The notes: generated from the letters alone by a model not told the origin. A stretch of DNA of 64,000 nucleotides from Gammaproteobacteria bacterium (GCA_041984235.1 JBHIYN010000016.1:67058-131057), one strand, 5' to 3'. Shown: positions 6,254-64,000, counted from the first letter of the stretch. Program-made: numbers and translations.

Positions 6254-7123
<870 letters not shown>

Positions 7124-7148
7124 GTCGATCGAATGCCGCGCTGCGCCC

Positions 7149-7856
7149 TCAGGCGCGCGCGGCCGCTTCGACCCGCTTCAGCAAGGACATCAGGTAGAGC
7201 AGCAGGAACAGCGCGAAGTAGTACTCCTGCGGCTCGCTGTAGCGCAGCTCGTAAGGCAGGGACTGCAGACCGGCGAGGTCCTTGATGCGTTCCGGCGTAC
7301 GCACCAGGATCGCGAGCACCGCGGTCGGCAGGCAGTCGAACGTCGGCCACAGCCACGTCCCCATCTGCGCAGGCTGCACCTGCGCCGGCGCGCTGATCCC
7401 GCGCAGCGGGACGATGATGCCGCCGACCAGCACCCAGATCTCGAGCAGCAGGCGTGGCTTCTGGTCGAACCAGCTGCTCACGTTGTGCAGGTTGGTTTCG
7501 TTCTGGTCGTTGATCCCGGCCAGGTAGTCCGGCGTTGCCCAGCCGAACAGGTGCTGGCCCCACGACAGCTCTTCGCCGGCGAAGTACACGCAGGCCGCCG
7601 TCATCGCCGCACTCCACAGCAGCAGCAGGCTGGTGCCGCCACCGCGCAGCGCGAGCAGCAGGCGTACGCCGTAGACCGCGCCGATAATCGCCAGCAACGG
7701 CGTGAGCAGCTCGATCAGGCCCAGCTCGCCGTCGATCCAGGCACTGTAGGCCGCCGGATCGGCAACGCGTACCGGCAGGATGACCAGCAGCAGCAGGGGC
7801 GGAAACCACAGCCACAGCCAGCGCGGCAGGACCGCCGCAGGACGCCGCCGCGACAT
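7149..7856 (-). CDS. hypothetical integral membrane protein
   Basis: 235-aa ORF (MSRRRPAAVLPRWLWLWFPPLLLLVIL...) with several hydrophobic helices. It lies 5 nt downstream of ctaB on the same strand. The longer 7149..8720 ORF is a frame artefact overlapping ctaB. Confidence 0.5.
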   Translation of the reverse strand: MSRRRPAAVLPRWLWLWFPPLLLLVILPVRVADPAAYSAWIDGELGLIELLTPLLAIIGAVYGVRLLLALRGGGTSLLLLWSAAMTAACVYFAGEELSWGQHLFGWATPDYLAGINDQNETNLHNVSSWFDQKPRLLLEIWVLVGGIIVPLRGISAPAQVQPAQMGTWLWPTFDCLPTAVLAILVRTPERIKDLAGLQSLPYELRYSEPQEYYFALFLLLYLMSLLKRVEAAARA

Positions 7857-7861
7857 CGGCC

Positions 7862-8779
7862 TCAGGCCAGGCCGGCGAAGGACATCAGCGCGGCCCAGTA
7901 GTGATCGAGGAAGAACACCGCGAACAGGCCGGTGAGGTAGATGATCGAGTAGCGGAAGGTGGCGAAGGCCAGCGCGTCGTCGTGGTCGAACTGCATGCGC
8001 ACCGCGTAGTAGAGGAAGATCGCGTCCAGCACCAGCGCGCCGGCGAGGTAGACCACGCCGCTCATGAAGGTCACGTAGGGCAGCAGCGTGGCGACCACCA
8101 GGATCAGCGTGTAGAGCAGGATCTGCTGGCGCGTGAAATCGACGCCGTGGGTGATCGGCAGCATCGGGATGGCCGCCTTGGCGTAGTCCTCGCGGCGATA
8201 GATGGCGAGCGCCCAGAAATGCGGCGGGGTCCAGGCGAAGATGATCAGGAACAGCAGCAGGGCATGCGGGTCCACGCTGCCGGTAACCGCGGTCCAGCCG
8301 AGCACCGGCGGCGCCGCACCGGCGGCACCGCCGATGACGATGTTCTGCGGTGTCGCGTACTTCAGGTACATGGTGTAGATCACGGCGTAGCCGATCAGCG
8401 AGGCGAAGGTCAGCACCGCGGTCAGCACGTTGACGAAGGCGACCAGCAGGTACATCGAGATCGCGCCGATGAACAGCGCGAAGGCCAGCGCCTGCGCGCG
8501 ATGCAGGCCACCCTGCGGCAGCGGCCGGTTCTGCGTGCGCGCCATCAGGGCGTCGATGCGGTACTCGGCGACGTGGTTGATGGCGGCGGCCGAGGCCGCG
8601 GCCAGGGCGATGCCGACGGTCGCCGGCACGAACACCGCCAGCGGCACCGTGCCCGGCGTGGCGAGGAACATGCCGATCACCGCGGTGAACACGATCAGCC
8701 CGACCACGCGCGGCTTGCACAGCTCGGCGTAGTCGCGCCAGTGCCCGATCGCGGAGGGAACCAGGGTGTTGCTCGTCAT
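7862..8779 (-). CDS. ctaB: protoheme IX farnesyltransferase (heme O synthase)
   Basis: 305 aa starting [26 protein letters not shown], with UbiA-family motifs. Start trimmed from the ORF-track start; ATGA overlap with ctaA. Confidence 0.85.
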
Positions 8780-56828: not shown

Positions 56829-57821
56829 TCAGCGCTGGTCTTGGTCGCGGCGGCCGAGCACCGCCGACAGTGGGCTCTTCACGGCGAGGCCGCCGCGATT
56901 GAGCACATGCGTGTAGATCTGCGTGGTTCGAATATCCCGATGACCCAACTGTTCCTGCACCGTGCGGATATCGGCCCCGCGCTCCAGCAGGTGTGTCGCG
57001 AACGAGTGCCGCAGACTGTGGCAGGTTGCCGGCTTCTCGATTCGCGCGTCGAGAACCGCGCGACGCACCGCCCGTTGCACCCGCTGCTCGTCGAAATGAT
57101 GACGCCGCCGGCGTCCGCTGCGCGGATCGCGGGAGATGCGATCCGCAGGGAACACGTACTGCCAGCTCCACTCCGTTGCTGCGCGCGGATACTTGCGTTC
57201 CAGCGCGAAAGGCAACCACACCTCACCGCAACCGTTGGCGACGTCGCGGTCGAAGACGGTGCGCCGGTCTGCGAGGTGGCGCCGCAACGGCACGATGAGC
57301 TCATCCGGCAGCGTCACGACGCGATCCCGTCCGCCTTTCCCGTCCCGGACGAGGATCGCCCGATGCTCGAAATCCAGATCCTTTACCCGCAAACGAACGC
57401 TCTCCATCAAGCGCAGGCCGGAGCCATACTGCAGGCATGCGATGAGCCAGGCGGCCCGCTCGACGCGCAGCAGCACTTTCGTGACTTCCTCCACGGTGAG
57501 CACTACGGGTAGCCGTTCCGGTCGCTTCGCGCGAACGACGTTCGTCATCTCGTCGAGCGGCCGTTCGAGAACATGACGGTACAGGAAGACGAGGGCATTC
57601 AACGCCTGGTTCTGCGTCGCCGGCGCCACCTTACGTTGCAGCGCAAGGTGGGTGAGGAAGCGCTCGACTTCCGCAGAGCCCATCTCTTCCGGATGCCTGT
57701 TCCCGTGGAACCGGATAAAACGCTTCACCCAGTCGACGTAGCGCTGCTCCGTGCGGATACTGTAGTGGCGCATCCGGATCGCGGCGCGAACCCGCTGCAG
57801 GAATGGCGATGGTGGCGACAC
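56829..57821 (-). CDS. intI: integron integrase (IntI family tyrosine recombinase)
   Basis: 330 aa collinear with IntI1: [39 protein letters not shown], the integron-specific extra segment ALERKYPRA...[14 protein letters not shown], and [15 protein letters not shown] with catalytic Tyr. GTG start. Confidence 0.9.
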
Positions 57822-57894
57822 GTCCCTGTGCGCTCCTCATGGTTTTATCCAAACGTACTGACTGGTCCCGGGAATCGCAACAGTCCGCCAAGCG

Positions 57895-58093
57895 GGCTGC
57901 GCGGATCCACGTCAAATCGACACTTTTTCCCAGAGAACGATGGGAGAAAAGATGACGACGGCTCCAACGCATGCTAGAAAAGAACAAGCCTTTTCAGACA
58001 GTAAAGGCTCCCTCCTCTTCTCCAAGGACGGTCCACCCCATGAACGCAGTTGCGGATCCCCGTCAAATTGACGTGTTAGATCACGTCAGAATG
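57895..58093 (+). other. attI: putative attI integration site
   Basis: Direct repeats TGCGGATCC(A/C)CGTCAAAT(C/T)GAC (57899 and 58031). Core-like GTTAGAT (58055) and GTTAGGC (58087-58093) in the same orientation. Followed immediately by the first cassette. Confidence 0.5.
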
Positions 58094-58135
58094 ACGTCCA
58101 ATTGCTGTTAGGCGGCTAGGATAAGTAGTCTCTTC

Positions 58136-58465
58136 ATGGCGGCCAAAATGGAGATAGTAAGCGAGCCAATTGGAATCGGCTTGCTGATACGTACACCTGG
58201 CCGTTATGCGATGGGCGTCGGCGTAGATGTCCTCAACTTTCTTGACGGGCAACCTGATATTTCTGTGAAGAACACCGGGTGGAAGAATGGCTTTGGTTTG
58301 GACGTTGCGGTTTCACTCCCAATTATTCGCATGGGAAGCCTACTCGCAGAGGTTTCGACCGATGGAGAGGAGTTTCATCTTCTCCGGGCATCTGGGCCAT
58401 ACGAAGAGTTCGCGGATTTGCTCCATCGAGTCGGAAAGTTCCTGGAGGACTACGAACCTCAGTAA
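58136..58465 (+). CDS. cassette 1 ORF: hypothetical protein (109 aa)
   Basis: First ORF after attI GTTAGGC. MAAKMEIVSEPIGIGLLIRTPGRYAMGVGVDVLNFLDG..., no recognisable family. Confidence 0.5.
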   Translation: MAAKMEIVSEPIGIGLLIRTPGRYAMGVGVDVLNFLDGQPDISVKNTGWKNGFGLDVAVSLPIIRMGSLLAEVSTDGEEFHLLRASGPYEEFADLLHRVGKFLEDYEPQ

Positions 58466-58708
58466 GGGCTATGCCGAGTGCGCATAGCGGCCGGCGCAGC
58501 ATGCGTTCTGCTTACACTGACTCGGCGGGGCGAGGGAGCCGCAAGAATCCGGCGGATGAGTGGGCGCCTCGAACGCGCTTCGTCAGTCACGCCACGAATT
58601 CTTCTAAATACGTTTGCGCCAGACTTCGGAACGTAGTGGAATCACTAGATGGGCATAGGCTTCGGAAAGCAGGTCGCAGATCATTTCGTTGAGGTCAGCG
58701 CGGCGCCT

Positions 58709-58812
58709 CCTAACAAAGGGATGGAGCCGACAGTCAAAAGCGACACGCCCTTTGCAAAGAGAAGAGCAAAGGCCGCGCCGCTTTCGCCCGCGGCTCATCC
58801 CGGGCGTTAGGC
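58709..58812 (+). other. attC: attC site 1
   Basis: TCCTAAC...imperfect inverted repeat GGGATGGAGCCG/CGGCTCATCCC...GTTAGGC (58806-58812). Confidence 0.55.
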
Positions 58813-58828
58813 ATCTTAGAGATCTCCT

Positions 58829-59518
58829 GTGCAGCAGCTAGACATCTCAGCGATAATGAGGTGGTCCCAGATTGGGAAGGTGCGATTCCCGTCTTCGGCG
58901 TCCATCATCTGCCCATATTGTGGCGAGAAGGGCGTTTTCTCCCTCACCAACCCAACGGACGACCCGCCGCGTCTAGCGCTTTCGGCAACTGCAGCGTGTC
59001 CAGGTTGCGGAAAACCGGTCCAATTCTGGTCGATACGAACCAAGAAAGCGCCGCCCGGCGATGCAGAAAATCCGATCGCCGTATATTTCTATCCGCCCAT
59101 AGAGAACCATTATCGGGTACCTGAATTCACGACAGATATCCCCGAACCGCTAAGTAGGTCATTCGTTTCGACCATCGATGCATATAACTCAAGAAATTAC
59201 GCAGCTACCGCAGTCTTATGCCGTCGAACGTTAGAAGGGATCTTTAAATATCTTCTGCCCCACGAAAAGCAAGATCTACCGCTTCACAAAGCAGTATCCG
59301 AGGTGCAGAACACTAAAGACCTTGCCGCGCCCTTGAACGCTTTGTCCCATGCAATTAGACAAGGCGGAAATCTTGGTGCGCATTTCGATATGGTCAAAGA
59401 GCCCGATGAGCAACTGGCGAAGAAAATGGTCGCATTACTCGAATATCTGATTACTTATCTCTATGAGTTGCCGGCCGAGATAGAACAAATAGAAAAAAGC
59501 CTAGAAAAAGATGCCTAA
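58829..59518 (+). CDS. cassette 2 ORF: zinc-ribbon plus DUF4145/HEPN-like domain protein (229 aa; start may be ATG 58856)
   Basis: N-terminal CPYCGEKG...CPGCGK. C-terminal segment with RRTLEGIFKYLLP...IRQGGNLGAHFD...LLEYLITYLYEL, matching DUF4145 architecture. Stop TAA embedded in the attC GCCTAAC core. Confidence 0.55.
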   Translation: MQQLDISAIMRWSQIGKVRFPSSASIICPYCGEKGVFSLTNPTDDPPRLALSATAACPGCGKPVQFWSIRTKKAPPGDAENPIAVYFYPPIENHYRVPEFTTDIPEPLSRSFVSTIDAYNSRNYAATAVLCRRTLEGIFKYLLPHEKQDLPLHKAVSEVQNTKDLAAPLNALSHAIRQGGNLGAHFDMVKEPDEQLAKKMVALLEYLITYLYELPAEIEQIEKSLEKDA

Positions 59519-59622
59519 CAAGCGGATCAACCTGACGTGTTACAGCGCGCTTCTCTCCTGCGGCTCCGCATTTTCGCTTCCGAGAAGCGCGCTGTAACAC
59601 GCAGGTTATCCGAGCGTTATAT
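59513..59622 (+). other. attC: attC site 2 (family A, ~110 bp)
   Basis: GCCTAACAAGCGGATCAACCTGACGTGTTACAGCGCGC...GCGCGCTGTAACACGCAGGTTATCCGAGCGTTATAT. Confidence 0.7.
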
Positions 59623-59861
59623 GTCGTGTGGACTAAAGAGCCCTCGAGCAAACGTCAGCGCTGCTGCGATTCCTTTCGTGAATAGAGAAAAGCGGCATCC
59701 GGCGGCTGTCGGCCGCGGCAGCGTAGATGGTGCTTCACCTGATACAACGTCGAGCGGTATCGTCGCAGTGCAGGGACGTCCAGGCCGGTAGTCGTGGCGA
59801 AGCGCCCACTTCCGAAAGGAATCGAGATGTCGTGTAAAGCAGGAACAGAATCCTACCCGCC

Positions 59862-59957
59862 ATATAACAAGGCAATGAAGCTGACGTTTGACCGCGCCTT
59901 CCCTTCGCTACCGCTCCGGTCAGTTGCCGTCAAACGCAGCTTATTGCAGCGTTGGGC
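59862..59957 (+). other. attC: attC site 3 (family B, ~96 bp)
   Basis: ATATAACAAGGCAATGAAGCTGACGTTTGACCGCGCC...CCGGTCAGTTGCCGTCAAACGCAGCTTATTGCAGCGTTGGGC. Confidence 0.6.
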
Positions 59958-59960
59958 GTC

Positions 59961-60326
59961 ATGAAACCACGGAGCATTAATCTGGAGGAGAAGCTTCGGT
60001 TGTTCACGGAGCACTGGACTCCCAAGATCATCGGAGAATTGAACGACTACCAGATTAAGGTGGCCAAGTTCCTCGGAGACTTCGTTTGGCATAGGCACGA
60101 CAACACAGACGAACTGTTCTTGTGCTTATCAGGGAAAATGAAGATCGAACTTCGGGACGGTGCCGTAGAGCTGAGCGAAGGGGAGCTATATATCGTTCCG
60201 AAAGGTGTGGAACACAAACCAGGCGCTACAGAGGAATGTCACGTCCTCCTTATAGAGCCTCGAGGCGTCGTTAATACGGGAAATACGAAGAGCGAACTAA
60301 CGGCGCCCGGGGACACATGGATATGA
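59961..60326 (+). CDS. cassette 4 ORF: small cupin-domain protein (121 aa)
   Basis: Cupin_2-like FVWHRHDNTDELFLCLSGKMKIEL...LYIVPKGVEHKPGA. Stop TGA abuts the attC GCCCAAC. Confidence 0.65.
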   Translation: MKPRSINLEEKLRLFTEHWTPKIIGELNDYQIKVAKFLGDFVWHRHDNTDELFLCLSGKMKIELRDGAVELSEGELYIVPKGVEHKPGATEECHVLLIEPRGVVNTGNTKSELTAPGDTWI

Positions 60327-60327
60327 C

Positions 60328-60422
60328 GCCCAACAAGTCGTTGGAGCGGACGCTTGACCGCTCCCTTCCTTCGCTATCGCTCCAGTCGGTCGCCGTCAAG
60401 CGCCGCTCAACTCTGCGTTAGG
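60328..60422 (+). other. attC: attC site 4 (family B)
   Basis: GCCCAACAAGTCGTTGGAGCGGACGCTTGACCGC...CGGTCGCCGTCAAGCGCCGCTCAACTCTGCGTTAGGC. Confidence 0.7.
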
Positions 60423-60432
60423 CGTATTCGCG

Positions 60433-60855
60433 ATGCCTTCATTCGAATCTCGTGTCGAGCGTCTCTGGACTAATCCTAAGAGAGTCCGTGTATCGGCGCC
60501 ATTCGTTTATTTCATCTCGGTATCCGACGAAAACGGCAATGAGTATCGATATGTCGGCCGAGCCCGGGATAAAAGCCGCCTAGAAGAATACAAACGGAAT
60601 ATGGCTAAGATCCGAGCACGAAAGCCACGAGGTAAAAAGCAAAAATATAGAGCTGTGCATTTCGTACTCTACAAGGCGATAGAGAACGATTGGGACATTG
60701 CGTTTCATCCCTATGAAGAATGTTCAGAGTCCCAGCTCAATGAAGTCGAGAATCGTCTAATTAGCGATCTTGCGTGCAACCTGAATTCGGCAAGCACGTG
60801 GCCGATCGAGAAGCTTTCGACACTGACAATCAAAGAACTACTAGAGAATGCGTAA
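60433..60855 (+). CDS. cassette 5 ORF: small GIY-YIG-like protein (140 aa), putative nuclease
   Basis: FVYFISVSDENGNEYRYVGRARDKSRLEEYKR resembles the GIY-(10-11)-YIG-R spacing. Downstream E...N pattern (ESQLNEVENRLISDLACNLN) resembles the distal GIY-YIG catalytic residues. Confidence 0.4.
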   Translation: MPSFESRVERLWTNPKRVRVSAPFVYFISVSDENGNEYRYVGRARDKSRLEEYKRNMAKIRARKPRGKKQKYRAVHFVLYKAIENDWDIAFHPYEECSESQLNEVENRLISDLACNLNSASTWPIEKLSTLTIKELLENA

Positions 60856-60864
60856 GGAGAATAC

Positions 60865-60974
60865 GCCTAACCAATGGATCAACCGGACGTGTTACAGCGC
60901 GCTTCCCTCCGGCGGCTTCGCATTTTCGCCTCCGCGAAGCGCGCTGTAACACGCCGGTTATCCAAGCGTTAGGC
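60865..60974 (+). other. attC: attC site 5 (family A)
   Basis: GCCTAACCAATGGATCAACCGGACGTGTTACAGCGCGC...GCGCGCTGTAACACGCCGGTTATCCAAGCGTTAGGC. Confidence 0.7.
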
Positions 60975-60980
60975 GCTCAG

Positions 60981-61529
60981 GTGCAACTCGAAACCGCCAT
61001 AAAGATAGTCACGTTCTTCGGAGGGACGGTGGGCGCGATATTCGGGGGTATAGCGCTACGAAACCTGCTTTTCCCAATCAGAATAATTCCTTCTTGGCAG
61101 CGCGTTTTCGACGGATCAGAACCGGACGCTATACAAGCACAAATAGTTAATCTCACGGACAAGCCTCTTGTGCTAGTTGCTTGCTCGGCGAAACCAACTT
61201 ATCGCCTTCGAACAATAATCACCCGACATCTCAAAAACCCGCTCACGCCGCGACGCCTATGGCCGAATATTCACTTCACCTCACAGTCCTTTCTGCTCCT
61301 TAACGAACCACAACGTAGACTCGAAGGAAAAGAGGTATTGGAACTAGAGCATAGGTTGTCGTCACACCCGCTTTCGTTTTTGATGGCGCCAATGTTTATC
61401 GTCGAAGTAACCTTGTCGACCGGACGAAAATTCAGATCACGCCGCATCACTGCGCCTGAGCGATGGCTGTTAATTAACAATCTTGATGAGGCTCGAAATC
61501 ATGATTCCCCGAATCAAACACGCGCCTAA
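60981..61529 (+). CDS. cassette 6 ORF: hypothetical protein with N-terminal TM helix (182 aa)
   Basis: GTG start right after attC 5. IVTFFGGTVGAIFGGIALRNLLF hydrophobic segment. Stop TAA inside the GCCTAAC of attC 6. Confidence 0.45.
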   Translation: MQLETAIKIVTFFGGTVGAIFGGIALRNLLFPIRIIPSWQRVFDGSEPDAIQAQIVNLTDKPLVLVACSAKPTYRLRTIITRHLKNPLTPRRLWPNIHFTSQSFLLLNEPQRRLEGKEVLELEHRLSSHPLSFLMAPMFIVEVTLSTGRKFRSRRITAPERWLLINNLDEARNHDSPNQTRA

Positions 61530-61641
61530 CAAGCGGATCAACCTGACGTGTTACAGCGGGCTTTTCTTACGTGGCTGCGCTATTTTCACTTCAGAAAAGC
61601 CCGCTGTAACACGCAGGTTATCCTGGCGTTGTGCGTCTGTA
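61524..61641 (+). other. attC: attC site 6 (family A)
   Basis: GCCTAACAAGCGGATCAACCTGACGTGTTACAGCGGGC...GCCCGCTGTAACACGCAGGTTATCCTGGCGTTGTGC. Confidence 0.65.
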
Positions 61642-61992
61642 GAGTCCGAGCACCAGCGACCGCCATCGGATCCGAACCTCTGCATGCGAATGGCTGAAGC
61701 CGAGGCTACACTCTGAGCAGGCCCGCGAGGCGAGCCACCGAAACCGAGTAGTCGCCCGAGGTTCAAGGATGAAACATCGCTTCAAAGTTAAAGCGGCGGT
61801 TGGCGAAGTGCGGTTCCAGCCGTTTGCTCGTCAATTACATCCAGGCGAGCATTTCCAAACGCACCATGGTCTTTCAGGTTGTCGAAATCGAGGCGCCGCT
61901 GCTGCCGCGCGGCTGCTGCACCCAGTAGCTGGCCGCACCGCCTCTGGCTTCCTGGCGTGGTCACTAGCCACGGCACATTTCTCAGCGCTGCC

Positions 61993-62102
61993 GCACAACA
62001 AGCGGGTGGAGTCGGACGCATTACAGCGGGCTTCCGCTCCGTGCCTGGCTATTGTCACTCCGCAGAAGCCCGCTGTAATGCGCCGCTCACCCGCGCGTTA
62101 GC
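61993..62102 (+). other. attC: attC site 7 (family A variant)
   Basis: GCACAACAAGCGGGTGGAGTCGGACGCATTACAGCGGGC...GCCCGCTGTAATGCGCCGCTCACCCGCGCGTTAGCG. Confidence 0.6.
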
Positions 62103-62119
62103 GTGATTGGAGGAATCCC

Positions 62120-62788
62120 ATGGCTAAGCCGCACCAAATATTCGTAGGCTGTCCATTTGGCCACCCGATCCGCAGGCATTACGACAAGCTTAAGCGCGAA
62201 GTCGAGAAAGAAACGCCTCTGCATATCGTGTTAGCGGATACGACCGCTGTTTCTTCTACCGATTATCTGCTGGAGCACATTACTAGCCTCATTCGTGACT
62301 CCGCGGGCTGCATCTTCGACGTAACTGGTGGCAATCCGAACGTCTCGCTTGAAGTGGGGATCGCACACGCCCTTCCCGCCGATTTCATTCTCGCTTTCTA
62401 CACGAGGAAAGCCCGAAGCCCTGCAGAGAAAGCACTCGCGGAGCAAGGTGAAACGAAGCCGATCATTTCGGATCTTCAAGGCCGCAACCGAATCGAATAC
62501 AAGCAATTTGCCGCACTTAAATCGCAACTCCTGGATCGCTATCTCACACGACTTCCGTACTACCAGCGGTGGCTGCGATTCAAGAAGTCGAACAGCTCAT
62601 ACGAGAAGTATGCTTTGCGGGTTTTCGATGAAATTAGAGATTCTGGCCGCACCCTGACATCTAGAGCATCGGTCGTGCTATCCGGCTCGGGCATAACTAC
62701 TTCCGACTTCGCGAAGGCACTCACGAAAGAGCGCCTAGTCACTATCAAATCGGGAAGGCAGGGTGGCTGGTATTACCCATCACGCTAA
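62120..62788 (+). CDS. cassette 8 ORF: nucleoside 2-deoxyribosyltransferase/TIR-fold-like protein (222 aa)
   Basis: IFVGCPFGH N-terminus and DVTGGNPNVSLEVGIAHALPADFILAF, which resembles the NDT-family D.G...E.G.A.A nucleotide-binding/catalytic segment. Plus a ~100-aa basic C-terminal extension. Stop TAA inside the attC CGCTAAC. Confidence 0.45.
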   Translation: MAKPHQIFVGCPFGHPIRRHYDKLKREVEKETPLHIVLADTTAVSSTDYLLEHITSLIRDSAGCIFDVTGGNPNVSLEVGIAHALPADFILAFYTRKARSPAEKALAEQGETKPIISDLQGRNRIEYKQFAALKSQLLDRYLTRLPYYQRWLRFKKSNSSYEKYALRVFDEIRDSGRTLTSRASVVLSGSGITTSDFAKALTKERLVTIKSGRQGGWYYPSR

Positions 62789-62878
62789 CAAACTGGTCAA
62801 CCGGACGCTTGACCGCTGGCTTCCTTCGCTACCGCTCCGGTCGCCAGCCGTCAAGCGCCGGTTACCAGAGCGTTAGAT
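62783..62878 (+). other. attC: attC site 8 (family B)
   Basis: CGCTAACAAACTGGTCAACCGGACGCTTGACCGC...CCGGTCGCCAGCCGTCAAGCGCCGGTTACCAGAGCGTTAGAT. Confidence 0.7.
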
Positions 62879-62885
62879 TGCAGTA

Positions 62886-63521
62886 ATGAGCTCGGTACTC
62901 AGCTTTGCGCTCTTCTTGTTAATCGGAGTCGTCTTCGGAAAAATAATTGTCTCCGTTGTTAACCTCATGCGAGGTCGACGGAGTACAGCCACCATGGCAT
63001 CCGACGCAGATGTTGCAGCAAACTTGGAACAACGACGCATCAATAACGCGATTGCGGACGCGTCGAACTTGTCCGACGAGCAATACGATGCGGCGCTCGA
63101 CGAGTTCGTCATCCCGTACGAGAACGCTGCGAATTATTTGGTCATAGATTGGCGAGAAGAAGACGATAAAGTCGTGGCAGCCTGCAGGAACGCTCTACTA
63201 GATGGATCTCAGGCCGAACTCAAATTTACATCTGTCGAGAACGATGATCATTGCTCTGCGACAGGCATCCTTAAGTATGGTGACAGATCTCTAGAAATAG
63301 AGATCCCTTTCTCACATAAAAGCCGATACATCCTATTAAGAGCAGTTAATCAAATTCTCTCGCCAGATTACGAAATCCGGCTGATTCGTCACTCCTTGGG
63401 CGGTGACACACATGAATTTATGCTCTTCTCCAGACAACAATGGAGCGAGATACAGAAAACAAGTGAACAATTAGTCAACGGATTGTTCGTCCCACTAACG
63501 GAACCGGTAGATTTCGAGTGA
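62886..63521 (+). CDS. cassette 9 ORF: hypothetical membrane-anchored protein (211 aa)
   Basis: N-terminal TM helix LSFALFLLIGVVFGKIIVSVV, then an acidic soluble domain. No recognisable family. Confidence 0.45.
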   Translation: MSSVLSFALFLLIGVVFGKIIVSVVNLMRGRRSTATMASDADVAANLEQRRINNAIADASNLSDEQYDAALDEFVIPYENAANYLVIDWREEDDKVVAACRNALLDGSQAELKFTSVENDDHCSATGILKYGDRSLEIEIPFSHKSRYILLRAVNQILSPDYEIRLIRHSLGGDTHEFMLFSRQQWSEIQKTSEQLVNGLFVPLTEPVDFE

Positions 63522-63535
63522 TCACCGGGATCTGC

Positions 63536-63633
63536 AATCTAACAAATCGTTCAACCGGACGCTTGACTGCCCGCTCCCTGCGCTGCCGCTCCGGTCGCGG
63601 TCCGTCAAGCGCCGGTTAACAGAAGCGTTGGGC
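63536..63633 (+). other. attC: attC site 9 (family B)
   Basis: ATCTAACAAATCGTTCAACCGGACGCTTGACTGC...CGGTCGCGGTCCGTCAAGCGCCGGTTAACAGAAGCGTTGGGC. Confidence 0.7.
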
Positions 63634-63981
63634 GTCAGCGGACACCGATTTTTCGGAACCAGGCAGCGCGAGCCAGTAAGGGCATCGCTTCACCACAAAC
63701 GCGGTGCAGGCTCGGTCGAAGCGCCGTGCCCGTCCGAGAGGCGGCCCGCCGAATCGGGTTTGCAGGATAGGAGCGAAGGCGTAGGCTTCAAGTCGTGACC
63801 CCGACGCAGCCGGGGTGGGGAAGGATCTTCTCGAGTCAGGGACAGGCACGTGCCGGGGAGTCATTGGAGTGATTGTTGCTGAACTTAGGCCGCATGTGTC
63901 GAGCTGCCGTGCCAGCCTGGTCGCTCGGCACAGCACCGTAGAGTGCCCGCAGCACAGCCATTGGTTCTCAAAGGCCGAGAC

Positions 63982-64000
63982 ACCCAACAAGTTGTTGGAG
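63982..64000 (+). other. attC: start of attC site 10 (family B; truncated by window end)
   Basis: ACCCAACAAGTTGTTGGAG matches the 5' end of attC 4 (GCCCAACAAGTCGTTGGAG). Confidence 0.5.

Follow-up and report, generated by a model that had tools for sequence, protein, structure and literature searches.

What does a small gene that stands alone in an integron cassette do, and does its product act by a mechanism that has already been described? This question is raised by a 64,000-nucleotide stretch of DNA from a Gammaproteobacteria bacterium (GCA_041984235.1 JBHIYN010000016.1:67058-131057; hereafter 'the window'), in which an earlier note read a solitary zinc-ribbon plus DUF4145/HEPN-like protein as a candidate abortive-infection RNase with 'no described mechanism'. 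We find that the window protein is a divergent relative of the recently characterized RAZR protein, and that it resides in a setting already reported for PD-T7-4, the name under which RAZR was first known. The novelty of the locus is much smaller than the note assumed, because the mechanism of RAZR has been described and PD-T7-4 is known from integron cassettes.

The integron that carries this gene includes the following features, with positions counted from the first letter of the window.

56829-57821, minus strand: intI, the integron integrase, 330 amino acids (NCBIfam TIGR02249, 479 bits, cut-off 265)
58107-58113, plus strand: attI core GTTAGGC, the nearest copy of this sequence downstream of intI, located before the first attC
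58708-58812, plus strand: attC of cassette 1 (covariance model R1, 66.4 bits, E=1.4e-15)
58807-59616, plus strand: target cassette, second in the array, 810 bp, with boundaries taken from the G/TT crossover points
59513-59622, plus strand: attC of the target cassette, R'' GCCTAAC ... R' GTTATAT (model R1, 111 bits)

The integrase is also matched by the Pfam models Phage_integrase and Phage_int_SAM_4. Cassette 1 starts at position 58108, and the array that follows attI carries nine complete attC sites plus the start of a tenth. Model R1 was built from these nine sites of the window and recovers all of them. On its 5' side, the target cassette is bounded by the R' core of the cassette 1 attC (G/TTAGGC, 58806-58812). 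The unit had previously been described as an integron cassette spanning 58807-59622. Its identity and start are correct, but in the strict sense it ends at G59616, with the R' core extending to 59622.

The attC of the target cassette is recombinogenic as its bottom strand, for which DNA folding yields a bulged hairpin with two extrahelical bases (-39.9 kcal/mol, z=-7.6). Each of cassettes 2 through 9 opens with a hexamer whose reverse complement begins the R'' core of its own attC. The target cassette opens with TTAGGC, and its R'' GCCTAAC begins with the reverse-complementary GCCTAA. Such complementarity is a signature of units that formerly were excised circles. The R' sequence GTTATAT departs slightly from GTTRRRY because the R'' of the next cassette is ATATAAC. 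The locus thus presents the features by which integron cassettes are recognized, namely G/TTRRRY crossovers, an imperfectly palindromic attC of its own with extrahelical bases, and an array beside intI and attI. Base composition also differs, with ~70% GC in the backbone, 50-58% in the cassettes and ~50-55% in the target cassette. A resemblance of cassette 2 to cassette 5 at their 3' ends, ahead of the attC sites (repeat D3), was considered separately and failed on alignment.

Only 22 nucleotides separate the cassette boundary from the GTG start codon of the open reading frame, which is alone in the cassette. With this spacing, neither a promoter nor a second gene fits in the cassette, and the promoterless unit must therefore be transcribed from the integron promoter or by read-through. 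A scan of 57500-59700 for sigma-70-like promoters returned no site, although such a scan is uninformative in a 70% GC host. Defense cassettes of sedentary and mobile integrons (Darracq 2025; Kieffer 2025; Getz 2025) are likewise compact, single-gene and promoterless, and the window cassette is a defense candidate of this kind. It differs from them in that the integron resides in a non-Vibrio backbone of ~70% GC, and in that its protein belongs to a divergent subfamily.

The gene and the segments of its product are arranged as follows.

58829-59518, plus strand: gene for the zinc-ribbon plus HEPN (DUF4145) protein, 229 amino acids, GTG start
58901-59026, plus strand: Cys4 zinc ribbon, residues 25-66 (C28, C31, C57, C60), placed by the invariant cysteines and the RAZR alignment
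59141-59515, plus strand: HEPN/DUF4145 domain, residues 105-229 (Pfam match 121-204)
59357-59383, plus strand: catalytic-type motif R177-QGG-N181-LGA-H185 (Rx7H), placed by conservation and by alignment with RAZR R146/N150/H154

The 229-residue translation contains CPYCGEKG (C28, C31) and CPGCGK (C57, C60), and its C-terminal region reads CRRTLEG ... IRQGGNLGAHFD ... LLEYL. The GC content of this reading frame is 49.9%. Its stop codon (TAA, 59516-59518) lies inside the R'' core GCCTAAC (59513-59519), as had been noticed earlier, and in several homolog cassettes R'' is likewise composed of the last codon (Ala, GCN), TAA and a C. The NCBI/Logan gene call (P0001) begins at ATG 58856 and encodes 220 amino acids. 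Two observations favor a start at 58829 instead. The conserved N-terminus of aligned homologs, MQxIxxxxVRxW, corresponds to the GTG-initiated N-terminus of the window protein, and locus L016, from a Rhodanobacteraceae metagenome-assembled genome, is a homologous cassette with the same type of 22-nucleotide leader and likewise a GTG start. The leader type common to both cassettes is TT..GC.TCTTAG.G.....CTGTGCAGC. Judging from these sequences, the true start is probably 58829, and the database entry is nine residues short. The frame is a real gene rather than a chance open reading frame, given its 176 homologs at E<=1e-3, which are mostly 223-235 amino acids long, and the 251 clusters (50% identity) found at E<=1e-30 in an exhaustive profile search (2601 clusters at E<=1e-3).

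The domain architecture put forward earlier is confirmed in its essentials. Residues 121-204 match Pfam DUF4145 (PF13643) with E=3.7e-8 and 33.8 bits against a curated cut-off of 23.1, which places the protein in this family and in the HEPN superfamily. The Pfam search that had been proposed for both domains succeeded only in this half, since every Pfam zinc-ribbon model scored under its cut-off on the window protein. The ribbon is evident instead by the four cysteines, which are invariant in 100 of 100 aligned homologs. In an alignment of 35 homologs, invariance extends beyond the cysteines to R132/R133/L135/E136/G137 and to R177/G179/G180/N181/G183/A184/H185/F186. When 100 homologs are aligned, R133 and E136 are still invariant, and both R132 and the R..GGNLGAH motif are conserved in at least 90%. 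The R/H motif suspected from the sequence is R177...H185, with Rx7H spacing.

Structure prediction, also suggested earlier as a check, gives a beta-rich N-terminal domain followed by five helices. The AF2 model, made from 35 sequences, has an overall pLDDT of 82.8. Eight strands form the N-terminal domain (residues 2-88, pLDDT above 90), and the zinc ribbon is embedded in this beta-rich region, which spans residues 1-88. The helices occupy residues 106-120, 124-140, 152-162, 168-178 and 194-228, and the motif loop (178-186) is modeled at low confidence. Foldseek found no significant match in the PDB, and the RAZR structure 9Y9C did not appear among the matches listed. Two unnamed viral matches (E=5.8e-9 and E=2.5e-4) were obtained against BFVD. 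The 'integron cassette HEPN' family (PDB 3jrt) resembles the window protein in HEPN fold and integron carriage and differs in sequence family, that of the window protein being DUF4145; 3jrt was absent from the top structural matches.

Proteins of this composition are not without precedent. DUF4145 was assigned to the HEPN superfamily in 2013, when fusions to zinc ribbons were already noted (PMC3710099). PD-T7-4, a 'Zn finger-HEPN' protein (RRL46918.1) from E. coli UMB1727, was recovered by functional selection in E. coli (Vassallo 2022, PMC9519451), and it is reported among the commonest known defense systems in integron cassettes (bioRxiv 10.1101/2024.07.02.601686). It was renamed RAZR when its mechanism was worked out (Zhang et al. 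Nature 2026, PMC13017515), with structures in PDB entries 9Y9C and 9Y6U. The same study reports that phage proteins are sensed by an N-terminal Cys4 zinc-ribbon domain (ZFD), which determines specificity and is connected through a linker to a DUF4145/HEPN RNase whose catalytic residues are R146 and H154. Changing either residue to alanine abolishes defense. RAZR alone forms linear oligomers. It assembles into a 24-mer ring that surrounds ring-shaped phage proteins, which can be Gp77 of SECphi27 or the portals of T3, T7 and SECphi18, and the assembled enzyme cleaves single-stranded RNA non-specifically, which leads to abortive infection (PMC13017515). The claim that no mechanism had been described for this architecture is consequently not supported.

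Establishing how the window protein relates to RAZR required intermediates. The PADLOC model for PD-T7-4 (PDLC04109) gave 0 matches at E<=1 on the window protein, and searches of PDB sequences with the window protein, a further sequence (P0034) and two profiles (A1, A2) returned ribosomal and other zinc-ribbon noise and no RAZR. Direct BLASTP between the window protein and RAZR yields 23% identity, confined to the HEPN domain, with E=0.002. Direct comparison of the two family alignments by hhalign is also weak (E=1.6e-3, probability 16%); the 181 aligned columns run colinearly from the first CxxC through the final helix and pair the zinc ligands and the R/N/H residues.

Stronger connections are made through relatives. 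A Phycisphaerales homolog (L036) aligns with the window protein without gaps over 227 amino acids (BLASTP E=1e-48, 34% identity), and this protein and five others (L035, L046, L044, L038 and L042) match PDLC04109 over nearly its full length with E-values from 1e-10 to 3e-5. Among 100 members of the window clade, ten match the PADLOC model (best E=4.4e-6). The same model is matched at 4e-17 by a plasmid protein of Enterobacter kobei and at 2e-16 by a prophage protein of Streptococcus, and true RAZR-like proteins score much above window-clade members. The E. kobei protein matches the RAZR chain 9y9c_OA with E=8e-9. A 14-sequence bridging profile (A5), which covers these relatives together with the window clade, matches the same chain with E=1.1e-8 in a single alignment that pairs profile positions 26-224 with RAZR residues 14-195. 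Among the PDB sequence searches, only these two queries reached RAZR. The bridging profile has a further, weak match to 1qyp, the RPB9 ribbon with which the RAZR ZFD was compared (PMC13017515). Moreover, a single phage protein family, phrog_1305, is matched at full length both by the RAZR cluster representative P0121 (3.9e-28, 99 bits, residues 14-193) and by the window protein (8.4e-26, 92 bits, residues 23-227). From these comparisons, it is very likely that the window protein and RAZR belong to one remote-homology family. By the same sequence measures, the window protein is a member of a distinct subfamily that lies beyond the reach of the PADLOC model.

For comparison of individual residues, RAZR positions 14-195 were rebuilt from the PDB alignment, and the resulting numbering agrees with the residues named in the published work (V21, A68-G69-N70, R146, H154, D179, D180 and R184). 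The zinc ligands C16/C19/C49/C52 of RAZR correspond to C28/C31/C57/C60 of the window protein. R146/N150/H154 correspond to R177/N181/H185, with the same Rx7H spacing that places R and H eight positions apart. RAZR R105 aligns with R132, P185 with P215, and P66 with P89, which is near-invariant in the window clade. Both are single proteins, ~220 amino acids long in the case of RAZR, with the layout of ribbon, linker and C-terminal HEPN domain, and both are carried by mobile elements. The two families also share a pattern of variation. Alignment entropy in the window clade is 2.09 for the zinc-ribbon domain, 1.19 for HEPN and 2.56 for the linker, its most variable segment, and the RAZR family values are 1.73 for the ZFD, 0.35 for HEPN and 0.64 for the linker. 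The zinc-ribbon domain is thus far more variable than HEPN in both families, which fits a division between sensor and effector, and we propose the N-terminal zinc-ribbon domain as a candidate sensor.

These correspondences bear on the possibility that the window protein is a nucleic-acid binder, in which a zinc-ribbon protein attaches to DNA or RNA without cleaving it. Records for phrog_1305 and for Streptococcus phages SM1 and PH15 carry the label 'DNA binding protein', ~20% of DUF4145 members are without the motif (PMC3710099), and the Bacillus plasmid relative L001 has lost its R/H motif. However, no experimental basis was found for the label, and the window protein retains an intact R/N/H motif, which is all but invariant across its clade. 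The same residues are required for defense by RAZR, which cleaves single-stranded RNA. We therefore regard a non-catalytic role as highly improbable.

The window protein also differs from RAZR. Overall identity is ~20-23%. The window clade has ~13 additional N-terminal residues, and its linker is longer and poorly conserved, whereas that of RAZR, which packs on the HEPN domain, is conserved. Strands at residues 2-4, 9-15 and 18-27 of the window protein are absent from the AF2 model of RAZR, which itself is of low confidence. The C-terminal helix of RAZR (~197-218) has no counterpart in the window protein. The residues D179/D180/R184, which make dimer-dimer contacts in RAZR and, like V21, are required for its higher-order oligomers, are replaced by T209/Y210/L214; among close relatives of RAZR, D179 and D180 vary (VTEQ) and R184 is invariant. 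A different, hydrophobic oligomer interface in the window protein is possible. The hosts also differ, with RAZR found in Enterobacterales and the window protein in environmental bacteria.

Given these differences, a different trigger or assembly mode on the same fold is a serious alternative. According to this explanation, the enlarged ribbon domain would sense something other than a ring, such as a monomeric phage protein, a nucleic acid or a product of a plasmid or other mobile element, and no 24-mer ring of the RAZR type would form. The low identity to RAZR, the extra N-terminal strands, the missing terminal helix and the loss of the interface residue R184 are all in keeping with it. Furthermore, the DefensePredictor preprint (bioRxiv 10.1101/2025.01.08.631726) describes DS-38, a single protein that combines zinc-finger and HEPN domains and was validated by experiment; it reportedly aligns with PD-T7-4 in the HEPN domain only. 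Other DUF4145 proteins act against plasmids, as with Ishtar. On the other hand, the alignments of the window protein to RAZR, PD-T7-4 and phrog_1305 span the ribbon as well as the HEPN domain, and the combination of a variable ZFD with a conserved HEPN domain is the sensor/effector logic of RAZR. This alternative seems rather unlikely to us, even as it merits attention. Known defense-associated members of the same Pfam HEPN subfamily, which include the BREX-associated BxaP, the anti-plasmid Ishtar1 and DUF4145-nuclease/helicase fusions, are built differently. Their HEPN domain is N-terminal or is joined to a HEAT-like domain, a beta-rich C-terminal domain, a helicase or a nuclease, and they carry no N-terminal zinc ribbon.

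The genomic surroundings of homologs were examined by a scan of species-representative genomes, which identified 48 loci and 46 full or near-full homologs. These come from Pseudomonadota, Bacteroidota, Planctomycetota, Acidobacteriota, Actinomycetota, Bacillota, Cyanobacteriota, Chloroflexota, Verrucomicrobiota and Thermodesulfobacteriota. An attC directly adjoins the homolog gene in ~9 of the 46 loci, which are integron cassettes (clear in L014, L015, L016, L020, L023, L024, L034 and L050; weak in L012), and L016 also encodes an IntI 65% identical to that of the window. A copy in Sinimarinibacterium has no attC and is flanked by an RND efflux operon and SIMPL/purEK. The Streptococcus prophage relative sits in the lysogeny region near the repressor. 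Searches of phages by tblastn with the window protein and the Bacillus relative gave no match.

No conserved neighbor gene was found across the 46 loci, in agreement with the earlier description of a single-gene cassette with one open reading frame. The sole synteny is with thyX, which lies beside the homolog in one Rhodobacterales clade and was not taken as a partner. These results also bear on an addiction or stress toxin, in which the HEPN RNase would stabilize the array or induce dormancy and have no role in phage defense. Such a function was put forward for integron HEPN cassettes by Anantharaman et al. 2013, and sedentary integrons hold many toxin-antitoxin cassettes (bioRxiv 10.1101/2024.07.02.601686). 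However, there is no partner gene. HEPN-MNT pairs share the HEPN fold with the window protein but differ from it in sequence family, and the window cassette has no second open reading frame that could be an MNT or antitoxin gene. A toxin-antitoxin arrangement was rejected because the cassette has no space for a second gene, and we consider the broader toxin explanation very unlikely.

Some copies outside integrons adjoin type I or type II restriction-modification genes, which raises the further prospect that the window gene is a restriction-modification accessory module captured alone in a cassette. Fusions of DUF4145 with restriction endonuclease and SF-II helicase modules are known, as are operons that it shares with restriction-modification genes (PMC3710099). 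Among 138 neighbors of non-integron copies, the type I subunits hsdM/hsdS directly flank L043 and L044, and small methyltransferases lie beside L025 and L039. Even so, restriction-modification neighbors occur in only ~4 of 36 non-integron loci, the window array contains no such gene, and the gene is solitary in most genomes. It is scarcely credible that the cassette serves this purpose.

The explanation that we favor, with some confidence, is that the window cassette encodes a stand-alone defense protein of the RAZR (PD-T7-4) type. The protein joins a ribbon to a HEPN domain with intact R177...N181...H185, is a remote homolog colinear with RAZR over its full length, and has no partner. By homology to RAZR, the protein expressed alone would be harmless to the cell. 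During infection, its variable zinc-ribbon domain would bind an assembly of phage-made protein, and this binding would reposition HEPN dimers to create composite R/H active sites. The activated enzyme would then cut single-stranded RNA non-specifically, including tRNA, rRNA and mRNA. Translation would halt, and the infected cell would die or arrest before phage release, as is characteristic of abortive infection. The components of this scheme are not equally secure. By analogy with RAZR, phage-triggered abortive-infection RNase activity is the probable outcome, and to this extent the analysis backs the stand-alone RNase proposed earlier as a candidate. A ring-shaped scaffold as the specific trigger would be a tentative extrapolation from RAZR, and one that we hold to be doubtful.

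Although a new kind of system is not revealed here, the relationship to RAZR supplies a likely function and a testable mechanism for a widespread family that is annotated merely as 'DUF4145 domain-containing protein' and is missed by the PADLOC model. It also adds a non-Vibrio, high-GC example to the evidence that integrons are stores of compact anti-phage genes. The natural diversity of the family in its sensor domain, linker and oligomer interface can be used to ask which features of ring-templated activation by RAZR generalize. At 50% identity, the window clade falls into at least 250 clusters; it is spread over many phyla and is often integron-borne. Perhaps, though we would not count on it, this clade is a separate lineage of ZnR-HEPN immune sensors that, through its enlarged beta-rich sensor domain and altered oligomer interfaces, recognizes another class of invader structures or is activated without rings. 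If true, such a lineage would extend RAZR's principle of an assembly-gated RNase to new triggers and new geometries.

The integron of the window (56829-64000) carries at least 10 cassettes, with GC contents of 50-58% as opposed to ~70% in the surrounding backbone. Its attC recombination sites, numbered here by cassette, fall into two length classes, one of ~96 nucleotides (attC3, 4, 8 and 9) and the other of ~110 nucleotides (attC2, 5, 6 and 7). The features of the array are as follows:

Cassette starts: 58108, 58807, 59617, 59952, 60418, 60969, 61629, 62098, 62873, 63628
59952-60326: cupin ORF, in a cassette of the window integron

The remaining cassette ORFs of this integron, the cupin excepted, yielded no Pfam or PADLOC match. 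No ORF of 60 or more amino acids lies wholly within the bounds of cassette 3 (59617-59951, 335 bp), and the ORFs listed around it either begin in the preceding attC or read through its own attC. This cassette may lack an ORF altogether or encode a small peptide. The last complete cassette carries an ORF on the minus strand (63616-63990), against the direction of the array, for which no family match was found.

The zinc ribbon-HEPN gene of cassette 2 is called in one database entry (P0001, 220 amino acids) from the ATG at 58856. The GTG at 58829, which gives a protein of 229 amino acids, is favored as the start codon by the N-terminal conservation among homologs and by a homologous cassette leader in locus L016. 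This longer form is used in a Logan assembly call (P0241).

Homologs reside in varied surroundings. In five Rhodobacterales genera (L027-L031, ~7000-8700 per locus), thyX (Pfam Thy1) lies immediately upstream, a fixed chromosomal position that contrasts with the scattered contexts of other groups. Type I restriction-modification hsdM/hsdS genes directly adjoin the homolog in two Flavobacteriaceae genomes (L043:5051-7897 and L044:8932-11765), and methyltransferases of ~330 amino acids with an NPPx motif lie next to it in L025 and L039. One alphaproteobacterial and one Opitutales metagenome-assembled genome (L011:8694-9500 and L022:8715-9512) share an ORF of 266-269 amino acids immediately downstream of the homolog, without a Pfam or PADLOC match; the pair may constitute a two-gene variant.

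Plasmids also carry relatives. A homolog with 32% identity, on a Deinococcus sp. KNUC1210 plasmid (L002, 605-3672), neighbors parA and a gene for the RNA-guided endonuclease IscB. A full-length relative on a Bacillus sp. DX3.1 plasmid (L001:3001-3696) retains the zinc ribbon, and its R..GN..AH motif is replaced by VHPDSPLYGMLE; it is probably a catalytically dead HEPN protein. The same observation extends to related Bacillus plasmids.

At the end of the gene, the first attC core (R'') is built from the final alanine codon, the TAA stop codon and a C (window 59510-59519; stop regions of L014, L016, L020, L023 and L025). This junction is kept across differing integrons and attC types. Loci L010, L013 and L015 have R''-like strings at their gene ends (GCATAAG, GCCTAAT and GCATAAT), with no attC detected directly downstream; in L015, an attC is present just upstream. 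These gene ends hint that this homolog family spread as a cassette and later became fixed elsewhere.
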